DNA from: Candidatus Odinarchaeota archaeon
GTDB lineage: Archaea > Asgardarchaeota > Odinarchaeia > Odinarchaeales > Odinarchaeaceae
Direction of reading: 5' to 3'
DNA: 32,000 bases
Assembly (NCBI GenBank): GCA_038826135.1
Contig: JAWBON010000005.1
Span: forward strand, 1-32,000
Of this stretch, positions 5,399 to 24,236 are shown piece by piece (within the stretch, counting starts at the first letter, position 1; the number at the start of each line of letters is the position of its first letter). The notes beneath the pieces were generated by a model. That model worked only from the letters and a program-made list of their open reading frames with translations, ran no database searches and was not told where the DNA came from. The translations under genes were made by a program, and so were the position numbers.

Positions 5399-5504
5399 TG
5401 GTGCGGGGGATGGGATTTGAACCCATGAAGCTGTCTGCGTCTATTAGACTCTACAGCATAGGATTCTGAGTCCTACCCCTTAGACCTGGCTCGGGAACCC
5501 CCGC
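5399..5504 (-). tRNA. tRNA-Leu(CAG) with an 18-nt intron (5433-5450) in the variable arm; CCA encoded
   Basis: Acceptor GCGGGGG/CCCCCGC, anticodon arm TAGGA-CTCAGAA-TCCTA, T arm ATGGG-TTCAAAT-CCCAT. The variable region is too long. BHB-like fold CTGT-AG^A-GTCT-AAT-AGAC-GCAG-AC^A; removal leaves a normal Leu V-arm T-GCT-GTAG-AGC-TTC and an 88-nt tRNA. Confidence 0.93.
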
Positions 5505-8581: not shown

Positions 8582-9436
8582 TTGGCGAAGATACCGTTCG
8601 AGGATAACAGCCTAGAGTTTACTATGCTAATCCCATTCTACAGTCGTGTTATAAGAACAGTTTACGCTAATTCTGATTTCAAAGACTATTCGGCGCTGGA
8701 AATTTTTACTAAGATGAAATACGATTTTGAAAAAATAAAGAATAATTATGATGAAGCAGCTCACGTTTGCATTGAAGCCCGTACTAAAGCATTAGACTAT
8801 CTCGTAAGCAAGTATATTGAAAGAAAACCGTATGCTACTATTGTAAACATCGGGGCTGGTTTAGACACACCCTTCTTAAGGCTAGATAACGGTAAAATAT
8901 TATGGTATGATTTAGACCTGCCTGATGCGATCGAGCTTAGGAGAAAATTCGTAAAAGAAACAGATAGAAACAGGTTTATATCTAAGTCGATGTTCGATTA
9001 CAGCTGGTTCGATCAGATCAACTACAATCCTGAGAGAGGGATATTATTCGTAGCGAGCGGTGTGTTAATGTATTTCGATGAAGAAAAAGTGAAGGATTTT
9101 CTTAGAAAAATAGCCGAGCGTTTTCCTGGAGGGGAGATGGTTTTCGACGCTGTGACGTCGAAGATCGCGGCGATAGTGGCGAATAGAAGAATGAAAAAAT
9201 GCGGTAATAGAAAGGCAATGGTCTGTTGGTATGTTAAAAACTCTAAGATATTCAATATATGGGATAGTAGAATTATCTTGATAAAAATAATGAACTACTT
9301 TGATAGAATTCGAAAACGGTTAATCGCATCTACACTAACTAAATTGAAACTATACATATCACAAATTATTAACGCTATGAAATACTATCATCTCAAATTC
9401 TTAGACGGAAAAGAAAATCAGGAGTCATACTTGTAA
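8582..9436 (+). CDS. Class I SAM-dependent methyltransferase, LCM/TcmP-like family
   Basis: TMLIPFYSR, RT...D, IVNIGAGLDT, WYDLDLPD.IELR, SMFDYSW, SGVLMYF, FDAV. TTG start. Confidence 0.85.
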   Translation: MAKIPFEDNSLEFTMLIPFYSRVIRTVYANSDFKDYSALEIFTKMKYDFEKIKNNYDEAAHVCIEARTKALDYLVSKYIERKPYATIVNIGAGLDTPFLRLDNGKILWYDLDLPDAIELRRKFVKETDRNRFISKSMFDYSWFDQINYNPERGILFVASGVLMYFDEEKVKDFLRKIAERFPGGEMVFDAVTSKIAAIVANRRMKKCGNRKAMVCWYVKNSKIFNIWDSRIILIKIMNYFDRIRKRLIASTLTKLKLYISQIINAMKYYHLKFLDGKENQESYL

Positions 9437-9990
9437 AGCGTGACTCCGAACATAGAAAACCAGCTAGTAATCATTAAAGCAACAACGGTTTCAATTAAAG
9501 CCAATCCCGGTAGATTAATAAAAATCCATACCAATAAACTTATTAAAAGCACAATTAACCCGTACACTCCAAGCCTGAAATAATTTTTTTTAACTATGAA
9601 AATTATGCTCATAACTCCACATAGAAGAATTGAGAGAGCGAACGCTAGAAAAGCGAAAAAATAATGTATAAAACCGAAGCTGAGAGTGAACACACCGGCT
9701 AGAATATAAGAAATATTTGTAGCGAAAAATATGGCTCCAATTATTAAATATCTTAAAACATTTTTATTATAATTGATAAAGAAGATTGAGAATAAAACCC
9801 CTAGAAAACCGCCCCCGATCAAACCGGAATTAAATATATAACTAACTTCAGACACACCCAGTTCGCTTAGAAGACCATTATACCAGTTGAAGCTACTATG
9901 TAAAAACGCGGATATGAATATACTACCCCATATAAGTATCGAGCTGAGGGGTAGTAAGAGTGGGAAAAAACCTAAATTATTTTTACCCAT
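9418..9990 (-). CDS. DUF998-like multi-pass membrane protein
   Basis: About 5-6 hydrophobic helices; F.W...LSELG...S.IFNSGLI.GG; GVF......H...A motifs. Confidence 0.75.
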   Translation of the reverse strand: MGKNNLGFFPLLLPLSSILIWGSIFISAFLHSSFNWYNGLLSELGVSEVSYIFNSGLIGGGFLGVLFSIFFINYNKNVLRYLIIGAIFFATNISYILAGVFTLSFGFIHYFFAFLAFALSILLCGVMSIIFIVKKNYFRLGVYGLIVLLISLLVWIFINLPGLALIETVVALMITSWFSMFGVTLYKYDS

Positions 9991-10032: not shown

Positions 10033-10323
10033 TCAGTCGCTAATAGTCTCCAAGATACTTACCGCGTTCCATATTTTTACACGCAGCCTTTAATAAGGCA
10101 GCTTTGTGCGAGCATGAAGCGGGCAGTTAGGATCTTGAGAGACCTCATCAAGTATGGAGATAGCGTTCGAAGCTCTTACCGCCATCCCATTAACCTTACT
10201 ATCGTTCAAAGCTGCAATAGATTCGCTTGCAGCCCTCCTTATATTTCTAGGCACGGAGGTATCTTCACTAATCATAGTCAGAACCTGTATCGCCTGCTTA
10301 GCTTTCTCCTCAGCAGTGGACAT
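10033..10323 (-). CDS. UPF0147 family protein, two exons (10323-10104 and 10076-10033), 87 aa after splicing
   Basis: Family motifs [14 protein letters not shown] and S.LDE.SQDPN.P.HART. The ORF track stops at TAA (10090), but the family-type tail [14 protein letters not shown] lies in the same frame 27 nt downstream, beyond a BHB hairpin. Confidence 0.9.
10077..10103 (-). other. 27-nt BHB-type intron in protein-coding gene UPF0147
   Basis: Minus strand: GCAC-AA^A-GCTGCCTT-ATTA-AAGGCTGC-GTGT-AA^A. It has a 4-bp central helix (GCAC/GTGT), two 3-nt AAA bulges and an 8-position intron stem (7 pairs, one U.U). Cutting after the 2nd bulge nt joins ACA A|AA ATA TGG = T-K-I-W. Confidence 0.85.
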
Positions 10324-10544
10324 TTATAAAACCTCCAATATTTTTCAAAGTAACGCTTAATATATAATATGTTATATAACAATTTTTAACTAAATAATGT
10401 ATTATTGAATAGTGAATTATACGATTTAAATCTTACCAAAAGATAACAAGCGAATAATTCTGGTAAATAGCGGTTAAAGGTTGAAAACAACATATTTTTA
10501 TCAAAATTAGTTTAATCTACAAATAGATTTTAGGAGAGTTAAAA

Positions 10545-11723
10545 ATGGTTGAAAATCTCAGTGAAAGCGAGATAAATAGTTTAATCCGTAAAATAAAGGA
10601 GAAAACCGCTCAAAGCCCTTTAGGGAAAATTGTAGTTATAGATGAAGTTGACCATCTCCTAATCATACCACCTAAACCGGATATAAAAAAAGTTTATGTG
10701 GAGTTAACTAATAAATGCAATTTAAACTGTCAAATGTGTATTAGAAGATCATGGTTAGAATCCCTAGAGGAAATGGGTTACGAAGATTATTTGAAATTAT
10801 TAGACCAGTTAACCGAGTTGCCTGAGCTGAAAACAATTGTTTTCGGCGGGCTGGGGGAGCCTACAATCCATCCTAAATTCAAAAAAATAGTTGAATCTAC
10901 AAGAAGCAGATTACCTGAAATTGAACTTGTTATGACCACTAACGGAACTATGATCGATAGGTTTCAAGACCTTATAATAGATAATTTCGATTACATGATT
11001 GTTTCAATAGACGCTGTTAGCGAAGATGTTTTTAAAGGTATAAGAGGCCCCCAGGCGGGTAAAGTTATAAATAATTTAAAAAACTTCGCCGAATACCGGA
11101 ATAAAATCAGGAAGTTCACTCCATGGATATGGGTCGAGTTTGTGGCTATGAGGCAGAATATAGAAGAACTCCCTAAACTATTAGCTATAGCTAAAGACCT
11201 GCAAATCAGTAGAATAATGATATCTAATATGCTACCTTACACACCCGATATGACAGCGGAGAGTTTATACCCCCACGCCGACCCTGAGGAAATATATAAG
11301 TGGATTCCAGTAGGCCCTGATCTTAAAAATTACATCCAGATCAATGTAGCGGACACTCGAATTAGAACGGAGAGAAGCTGCGCGTTCATTAAAAATAAAG
11401 CAGCCGTGATCACTGTAAACGGTGATGTAACTTCCTGCTATAATTTCGCTCACACATACCGCTCCTATATAAACGGTCATGAGAAAACCGTATACAAGTA
11501 TAGCTTCGGAAACATCCACAGTGAGAAACTAAAAGACATATGGATGAAAGAGGAGTACGTGAGATTTCGAAATAAAGTTTCAGATTTCAACTTCCCATCA
11601 TGCATAGATTGCCCGACAAGAGAAGGATGCTCATACGCTAATACTAATGAAGTGGATTGCTACGGTAACACCCCCTCCTGCGCGGAATGTTTGTGGAGCC
11701 GGGATATTGTAAGATGCCCTTAA
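10545..11723 (+). CDS. Radical SAM/SPASM protein, tungsten-cofactor oxidoreductase maturase type
   Basis: LIIPPKPD..KVYVELTNKCNLNCQMC, FGGLGEPTIHP, SPASM C.F, G.VTSC, C-terminal C.DCP...GC...DCYGN.PSC.ECLWSR..VRCP typical of the W-oxidoreductase maturase family. Confidence 0.8.
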   Translation: MVENLSESEINSLIRKIKEKTAQSPLGKIVVIDEVDHLLIIPPKPDIKKVYVELTNKCNLNCQMCIRRSWLESLEEMGYEDYLKLLDQLTELPELKTIVFGGLGEPTIHPKFKKIVESTRSRLPEIELVMTTNGTMIDRFQDLIIDNFDYMIVSIDAVSEDVFKGIRGPQAGKVINNLKNFAEYRNKIRKFTPWIWVEFVAMRQNIEELPKLLAIAKDLQISRIMISNMLPYTPDMTAESLYPHADPEEIYKWIPVGPDLKNYIQINVADTRIRTERSCAFIKNKAAVITVNGDVTSCYNFAHTYRSYINGHEKTVYKYSFGNIHSEKLKDIWMKEEYVRFRNKVSDFNFPSCIDCPTREGCSYANTNEVDCYGNTPSCAECLWSRDIVRCP

Positions 11724-24109: not shown

Positions 24110-24236
24110 GGCTCGGTGGCTCAGCCCGGCTAGAGCAACGGACTTGTAAGTTACTTGAAAACCGGGAGATCCGTCGGAAATAGTTGTCACCAGACCTATT
24201 GGCGAATCGGGGGTTCAAATCCCCCCCGAGCCTCCA
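24110..24236 (+). tRNA. tRNA-Thr(TGT) with two introns (24149-24168 at 37/38; 24178-24206 at 46/47); CCA encoded
   Basis: Spliced 78-nt cloverleaf GGCTCGG...ACGGA CTTGTAA TCCGT CGGTC GGGGG TTCAAAT CCCCC CCGAGCC T CCA. BHB1: CTTG-TA^A-GTT..AAC-CGGG-AG^A. BHB2: CGTC-GG^A-AATAG..CTATT-GGCG-AA^T. Confidence 0.9.

Follow-up and report, generated by a model that had tools for sequence, protein, structure and literature searches.

A candidate bulge-helix-bulge intron in the UPF0147 gene of an Odinarchaeum genome

A protein-coding gene broken by a short hairpin with an in-frame stop may be a truncated gene, or it may be made whole when the tRNA splicing enzymes remove the interruption from its messenger RNA. 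Which of the two applies is the question raised by a UPF0147 gene (PF03685) on the minus strand at positions 10033-10323 of the window, that is, of the whole 32,000-nucleotide (nt) stretch analysed, which covers positions 1 to 32,000 of contig JAWBON010000005.1 in assembly GCA_038826135.1. An earlier note, made from the letters of this DNA alone, proposed that a 27-nt intron of the bulge-helix-bulge (BHB) type interrupts the gene, and it placed the DNA in an Asgard-like lineage. The lineage was correctly recognised: the host is Candidatus Odinarchaeum, of the Odinarchaeia, with a genome of 1.26 Mb, 38% GC and 105 contigs. As judged from the sequence comparisons described below, the insert is very probably a functional intron of the relaxed (HBh') BHB form, spliced from the mRNA by the tRNA splicing endonuclease EndA and the ligase RtcB.

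The interrupted frame and its predicted repair

The gene begins with an ATG at 10321-10323 (-), preceded at a distance of 8 nt by a GGAGG ribosome-binding site read off the sequence at 10332-10336 (-). The open reading frame (ORF) that is called here, 10090-10323 (-), encodes 77 amino acids (aa) and ends with a TAA at 10090-10092 (-) inside the insert. Past this codon, the same frame runs on through the family tail to a final TGA at 10033-10035 (-). Direct reading confirmed the minus-strand sequence quoted in the earlier note, and the called ORF agrees with its statement that the unspliced frame stops after 77 aa within a TAA-bearing insert. The product obtained by reading through the stop matches PF03685 with 104.5 bits (cut-off 23.6) over profile positions 2-81, the insert appearing as a gap, whereas the 77-aa ORF covers positions 2-71 only, with 97 bits. 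Consequently, the sequence for the final ten positions of the family comes after the stop. Since the alignment with the solved homologues 2QZG and 2QSB extends through ...HTRTQIWGIVSELETIK, the crystallised protein includes the C-terminal segment. The assignment to UPF0147 with its family tail, which the earlier note had made, therefore stands, and the tail is that of intronless relatives.

The predicted intron occupies positions 10077-10103 (-) and consists of an A, a 20-nt hairpin, GUGU and AA, with the TAA (10092-10090) inside it. The central helix is shared between exon and intron. Its 5' strand, GCAC (10106-10109, -), is exonic and comprises the end of an Arg codon and the start of a Thr codon, and its 3' strand, GUGU (10079-10082, -), is intronic. 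Together they form 4 base pairs (bp), one G-U and three Watson-Crick, and a 3-nt bulge lies 3' of each strand, on opposite strands, which is the BHB core. The bulge at the 5' splice site is AAA at 10103-10105 (-), with the predicted cut between 10104 and 10103. The bulge at the 3' splice site is AAA at 10076-10078 (-), with the predicted cut between 10077 and 10076, and it forms part of a 3x5 internal loop. The inner hairpin h', GCUGCCUU-AUUA-AAGGCUGC, spans the 20 nt from 10083 to 10102 (-); it is present as earlier described, with its AUUA loop, but it contains one U.U mismatch that had gone unmentioned, so that 7 of 8 pairs are formed. A weak exon-exon outer helix is possible between UUCAUG (10113-10118, -), which is displaced from the central helix by CUC, and UAUGGA (10068-10073, -). 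When 10060-10125 is folded, this very BHB arrangement and the outer helix UUCAUG/UAUGGA are both part of the minimum-free-energy structure; the fold energy of the segment is unremarkable (z = -1.4).

In the proposed mechanism, the last four bases of exon 1 before the AAA bulge (GCAC) would pair in the pre-mRNA with the GUGU near the 3' end of the intron, giving the 4-bp central helix with an AAA bulge after each strand and a hairpin as the intron body. EndA would cut between the second and third base of each bulge (2^1, the caret marking here and below the position of a cut or junction), and RtcB would join the exons to ...CGC ACA A^AA AUA UGG.... The predicted spliced junction is CGCACAA^AAATATGG. 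Excision of the 27 nt would remove the TAA and yield a protein of 87 aa that includes the conserved C-terminal helix, while the unspliced mRNA would yield a 77-aa protein without it. Exon 1 (10104-10323, -) contributes 73 codons plus one base, the first, of the Lys codon at the junction and corresponds to PF03685 positions 2-71. Exon 2 (10033-10076, -) contributes the last two bases of that codon, 13 residues and the TGA, and corresponds to positions 72-81.

A check on this prediction comes from genes that carry no insert. In the intronless homologues P0006, P0008 and P0017, the tail is contiguous across the site, and the empty-site DNA of the intronless relatives reads ACA AAA ATA TGG, which is exactly the predicted junction; the predicted protein tail is likewise identical to theirs. 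The proposed removal of 27 nt to give 87 aa was thus matched at the level of both DNA and protein.

Conservation and constraint among related genomes

In all four genomes of the genus, one of which is a single contig, the UPF0147 profile match spans 270 nt instead of 240 and contains one internal stop, either TAA or TGA. The insert position is common to the four genomes, and the central helix and bulges are invariant among them. A protein search yielded further UPF0147 proteins of 74-75 aa, with 80-85% identity and ends reading ...PLHARTK or ...HARTM. The DNA of four distant assemblies (L205, L207, L208 and L210) carries inserts of 27 or 30 nt at the same site, hereafter the Lys site. The inner stems of the distant inserts, such as GUGAACUAU/AUAGUUCAC and GUAAACUAC/GUAGUUUAC, show no relationship in sequence, but the H-B-h'-H-B architecture is retained. 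The alignment of orthologues that had been proposed as a check on the intron thus places the insert at one site in eight assemblies, with compensatory changes. An assembly artefact, considered as a source of the insert, is excluded by the eight independent assemblies.

The four same-genus sequences and the four distant ones were combined in an alignment of eight orthologous sequences (A2). Standard pairs fill 92% of its cells, compared with 19-47% when the partners are slid by 1-3 columns. Changes on both sides occur in six pairs (17 cells), five of them in the inner hairpin. The central helix is paired in 100% of cells across the eight sequences. Its second pair is C-G in six of them and U-A in the other two, which ties the third base of the exonic Arg codon (CGC to CGU, a synonymous change) to a base of the intron. 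The 5' bulge is AAA or AAU and the 3' bulge AAA or AUA throughout, and the inner helix h' varies between 7 and 9 bp. In 7 of the 8 sequences, the minimum-free-energy fold includes the BHB. The 4-bp GCAC/GTGT helix with its two AAA bulges, as first described for the window, is therefore recovered both in the fold of the gene itself and, in equivalent form, in all eight orthologues.

Constraint on the coding sequence behind the insert provides a second line of evidence. Over the 15 codons of exon 2, the eight lineages show 14 variable sites; ten codons vary only synonymously, and one shows a change of residue (S/T/N). The last 20 codons of exon 1 give a similar picture in the same lineages, with 16 synonymous-only and two residue-changing codons. 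Going by these substitutions, exon 2 is under purifying selection behind one or two in-frame stops. A direct reading of the sequence found no ribosome-binding site of its own and no in-frame start ahead of it. Synonymous variation behind stops, in a segment with no start of its own, argues that exon 2 is translated in the frame that splicing would create.

UPF0147 is present in 365 of 400 sampled Asgard genomes. Of the matches listed, those with internal stops all come from the four Odinarchaeum genomes, and split ones were seen in G004-G006 and G012; the count does not take in six uninspected genomes with two matches each (G086, G177, G191, G200, G223 and G362), of which at least G362 has them on separate contigs. 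A search of metagenome contigs gave 80 loci, with identities of 75% at most, and all 74 that could be scored have no insert at the Lys site. A regular-expression screen had returned UPF0147 inserts of 46-58 nt in Thorarchaeota. These were false positives, and the genes proved intact on inspection.

The split matches reveal a second insert site. The profile match breaks at positions 61/62 in three genomes from a sister family within the order, G004-G006, and also in G012, whose family is a different one of the phylum. The loci (L031-L034, on G004:C81, G005:C139, G006:C10 and G012:C86) carry the insert 8 codons upstream of the Lys site, at SQDP^NCPLH. The inserts have the form AUCC-AAU-hairpin-GGAU-AAA (31 nt) or ACCC-AAA-hairpin-GGGU-AAA (29 nt), and the 2^1 rule applied to them restores CCA A^AC UGC. 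With lengths of 29-31 nt they shift the frame, so that stop-codon read-through cannot rescue them. Their stems differ among the genomes by wobble and compensatory changes, and two adjacent outer base pairs bring them nearer to the canonical form than the intron at the Lys site. The occurrence of two sites 24 nt apart in one gene of 87 codons may point to independent gains, though an ancient intron may also account for them.

Objections and alternative explanations

Several observations weigh against the splicing of this insert. First, the motif is common in an AT-rich genome: in its loose form it occurs 25,432 times on both strands of the 1.26-Mb genome, a rate of 1.3e-4 per position and length. 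A genome-wide scan for the motif combined with rescue of an ORF gave 1393 matches for the true geometry and 1389 for a mirror-image control, and stricter settings produced no enrichment. Because the scan performs no better than its control, the motif alone proves nothing, and this criterion was rejected as uninformative; the only scan matches taken on to Pfam were those with recognisable split motifs. Second, the strict hBHBh' form is not found, the outer helix being set off by CUC on one side and by two extra A on the other. In A2 this helix is paired in 92% of cells and shows no covariation. Third, within the four same-genus sequences, covariation amounts to one double-change pair and is not significant (232 of 500 shuffles). 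In A2, 0 of 500 column shuffles reach the observed covariation score, a figure that overstates the significance and is not a probability, since the eight sequences are related. Finally, the length of the Lys-site insert, 27 or 30 nt, is divisible by three in all eight sequences, so that read-through would be possible as well.

These points narrow the claim in form and in strength. As the outer helix is non-adjacent, separated by the 3x5 internal loop, the intron is of the relaxed HBh' type and not a strict hBHBh' element; of the BHB structure first proposed, the core and inner stem stand, and the strict form does not. Substrates of the HBh' type are reported to be cleavable by EndA of the (alpha-beta)2 class (PMC5829648). 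The chance of finding the motif on an excision window fixed by homology is about 5e-4, with four equivalent windows allowed, and this figure leaves out the second insert site, the covariation and the constraint on exon 2. The slid controls and the complete turnover of the stem sequences agree with the shuffle result.

One alternative, which is very unlikely, accepts the cleavage and questions its purpose. Destruction or down-regulation of the mRNA would be the main outcome of EndA cleavage at the BHB, and ligation would be rare, so that the element would be a regulatory cleavage site and not a constitutive intron. There is precedent for such an effect, as EndA substrates other than tRNA can affect expression, for example in the 5' untranslated region (5'UTR) of Haloferax HVO_1309 (PMC7714728). 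However, exon 2 could be under purifying selection in the post-splicing frame only if ligated mRNA is translated, and inserts of the same kind are found in housekeeping genes of the host genome such as gatA, described below.

Programmed read-through of the stop codon, with no splicing at all, would give a 96-aa protein with an insertion of 9-10 residues before the last helix. The in-frame length of all eight Lys-site inserts suits this explanation, as does a frame that is open apart from the stop or stops. Nevertheless, it is extremely unlikely. No Lys-site insert is free of in-frame stops, and the stops occupy two or three different places: the codon is TAA or TGA, it stands at codon 2 or codon 5, and JGI3300038469 has two stops. 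The peptides encoded by the inserts are unconserved, while their flanks are nearly invariant, and the substitutions track base-pairing and not codons. Moreover, nothing in the Pfam profile corresponds to the insert, and the frame-shifting inserts of the sister lineages, at 29-31 nt, fall outside what read-through can explain. The combination of in-frame length and a stop in all eight inserts may reflect selection against translating the insert, or it may reflect shared ancestry.

A truncated 77-aa protein or a pseudogene, in which exon 2 would be a decaying remnant behind the insertion of a hairpin such as a small mobile or palindromic element, is what annotation implies. As the earlier note had foreseen, gene callers give UPF0147 products of 74-77 aa at such loci, and the 77-aa ORF still reaches 97 bits on Pfam. 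A decaying remnant is nonetheless hardly credible in view of exon 2, whose frame and residues are kept in eight lineages, with 14 variable sites that are almost all synonymous. The exact BHB geometry is also kept while the stem sequence turns over, the alignment to 2QZG and 2QSB takes in the C-terminal segment, and the protein is full-length in the 365 of 400 Asgard genomes. Ribosomal bypassing, as in phage T4 gene 60, would have peptidyl-tRNA-Lys hop over the hairpin from AAG to an AAA 24-27 nt downstream and would yield a product identical to the spliced one, with Lys codons at take-off and landing and a stop-bearing hairpin between them, but it deserves next to no credence, because the take-off codon is AUG and not Lys in ERZ23491060 (L210), the second-site inserts have no matching take-off and landing codons (CCA, then ...AUA before AAC), the conserved 4-bp helix, the two 3-nt bulges and the exon-intron covariation are left unexplained, and identical geometry marks a tRNA intron in the window.

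Splicing machinery, further split genes and known systems

Splicing of UPF0147 by EndA and RtcB presupposes that the host encodes both enzymes. Two genes with the EndA catalytic domain PF01974 are present, one on contig C45 and the other across the break between C48 and C72. The two halves of the latter (C48:1-135, -, and C72:1-247, +) lie at the ends of their contigs, which share an overlap of about 125 nt with a single mismatch; the overlap marks them as one gene, so the genome has two EndA paralogues and not three. Asgard EndA has been reported as an (alpha-beta)2 type with an L1 loop, linked to broad specificity (PMC5829648). The presence of two paralogues is compatible with this type, and a heteromeric, broad-specificity EndA is likely. 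RtcB (PF01139) is encoded at G000:C16:2586-5357 (+), loci L121/L122, in a single open frame of 995 aa. Between its Pfam positions 1-50 and 49-426 lies an insertion of about 1.4 kb, which is the size of an intein, and this ligase, on which RNA splicing would depend, may in turn require protein splicing.

Three further genes of the host genome are split by inserts with the same geometry as the UPF0147 intron, a 4-bp helix with 3-nt bulges (H4-B3). In gatA, a 29-nt insert (G000:C35:9457-9485, +, locus L116; GCGG-UAU ... CCGU-AGG) lies inside the amidase signature, GSDTGG^S.RQPA, and the Pfam Amidase match continues from positions 5-153 in exon 1 to 156-445 in exon 2. In gcvPA, a 30-nt insert (G000:C60:2456-2485, -, locus L117; CCCC-AUA ... 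GGGG-AUA) lies at YTP^YQ, with Pfam GDC-P positions 9-99 in exon 1 and 101-428 in exon 2. In a radical-SAM gene, a 29-nt insert (G000:C33:9419-9447, -, locus L115; GCGU-AUA ... ACGC-AAU) divides the CxxxCxxC motif (CTFRCAY^C), and Pfam support for exon 2 is weak here (21 bits, positions 14-152). The continuity of Pfam coordinates across these inserts makes UPF0147 one of several genes in this genome that would need such an excision. The cbf5 gene of the host is uninterrupted.

A more far-reaching scenario can be built on these genes. Introns of the tRNA type would have passed in Odinarchaeia out of tRNA genes and into several coding genes, with UPF0147, gatA, gcvPA and the radical-SAM gene among them and others probable. 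EndA and RtcB would in that case form an obligatory mRNA-splicing system in a lineage closely related to eukaryotes, and the removal of the UPF0147 intron, close to the 3' end of the gene, would serve as a regulated switch between truncated and full-length protein, in the manner of XBP1/HAC1, and not only as constitutive repair. Taken as a whole, this scenario is unlikely.

The window itself offers a tRNA intron for comparison. The gene for tRNA-Thr(UGU) at 24110-24233 (+) is over-long and contains a canonical 20-nt intron at position 37/38 as well as a variable-region insert of about 30 nt. At the 37/38 intron, the 4-bp helix is CUUG/CGGG, the two bulges read UAA and AGA, and the inner hairpin is short. 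When the 2^1 rule is applied, precisely 20 nt are lost and CUUGUAA remains as a 7-nt anticodon loop. The equivalence that the earlier note had drawn with nine tRNA introns in the window holds for this one, the intron for which it was confirmed.

Among known systems, the closest is the BHB intron in the cbf5 pre-mRNA of crenarchaea, which was reportedly described by Watanabe in 2002 and by Yoshinari in 2006. Its presence in Crenarchaeota is documented in later work (Yokobori 2009, PMC2738675). The two cases share a short BHB intron in an archaeal coding sequence, and gain and loss among related lineages. Removal of the cbf5 intron by the tRNA splicing endonuclease and ligase, and its link to a hetero-oligomeric EndA of broad specificity, are further points of likeness. 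They differ in gene and in phylum, UPF0147 being a family of unknown function and the host a member of the Odinarchaeia within the Asgard archaea. In addition, at least three other genes carry such inserts here, and sister lineages have a second site in UPF0147. Splicing of cbf5 has been shown experimentally, whereas that of UPF0147 is predicted: cleavage, ligation and translation of the spliced form would each have to take place as the comparisons suggest.

In the HVO_1309 mRNA of Haloferax volcanii, a BHB intron lies in the 5'UTR, and cbf5 was stated there to be the sole earlier report (PMC7714728). HVO_1309 likewise has an EndA substrate within an mRNA, and removal of its intron matters for expression. 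However, the intron of this euryarchaeon lies in an untranslated region, while that of UPF0147 lies in coding sequence, where removal would restore the C-terminus. The tRNA introns of archaea, which occupy canonical as well as non-canonical positions and are abundant in Asgard lineages (PMC11291895; bioRxiv 10.64898/2026.10.13.758758), have in common with the UPF0147 intron the 4-bp helix, the 3-nt bulges, the 2^1 cut (as in tRNA-Thr), a size of 20-30 nt and the same host enzymes. The difference lies in the host RNA, which in this case is a translated mRNA. Consequently, splicing must coexist with ribosomes, and the codons, too, limit what the exonic half of the central helix can be.

In eukaryotes, mRNA splicing independent of the spliceosome is represented by HAC1 and XBP1, which use Ire1 together with RtcB or Trl1. 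The likeness to UPF0147 comprises the shortness of the intron (26 nt in XBP1), the recognition of RNA structure by a protein endonuclease, ligation by RtcB and an altered C-terminus. In contrast to EndA, Ire1 recognises twin stem-loops with a CNGNNG loop consensus and not a BHB, and the eukaryotic reaction is regulated by stress. The likeness is one of functional analogy only; nothing observed here points to regulation, and Ire1 itself was not searched for.

A full-text literature search returned no intron in Asgard mRNAs or in UPF0147, though its coverage is incomplete and an earlier description elsewhere is possible; the reports it gave on introns of Asgard archaea are confined to tRNA. Within the literature searched, BHB introns in coding genes are represented by essentially one earlier archaeal case, cbf5, and UPF0147 would be the second coding gene family, in Asgard archaea. 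New features are that the same gene has been struck at two sites in related lineages, that the housekeeping genes gatA and gcvPA carry similar inserts, and that comparative support for the UPF0147 intron is unusually clean. In practical terms, gene callers truncate or split such genes, which inflates pseudogene counts and lowers completeness estimates and metabolic reconstructions for Odinarchaeia. Conceptually, the locus offers a testable case of mRNA splicing by protein enzymes that coexists with coupled translation, and of the colonisation of coding genes by introns in a lineage close to the eukaryotic stem.

Some minor observations concern the surroundings of these genes. Downstream of UPF0147 lies a gene for a DUF998 membrane protein (9418-9990, -), and upstream, in divergent orientation, one for a radical-SAM/SPASM protein (10545-11723, +); no functional link between these two neighbours and the intron is apparent. 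Elsewhere in the host genome, a gene for a PfkB-family kinase (G000:C28:7066-7869, -, locus L212) matches Pfam positions 30-297 only and lacks positions 1-29. Within the window, ARAGORN reports no tRNA gene at all and Rfam reports two, both over-long. One is the tRNA-Thr(UGU) gene described above, and the other is a tRNA-Leu gene with the anticodon loop CUCAGAA (5402-5504, -), which carries a variable-region insert of about 30 nt.

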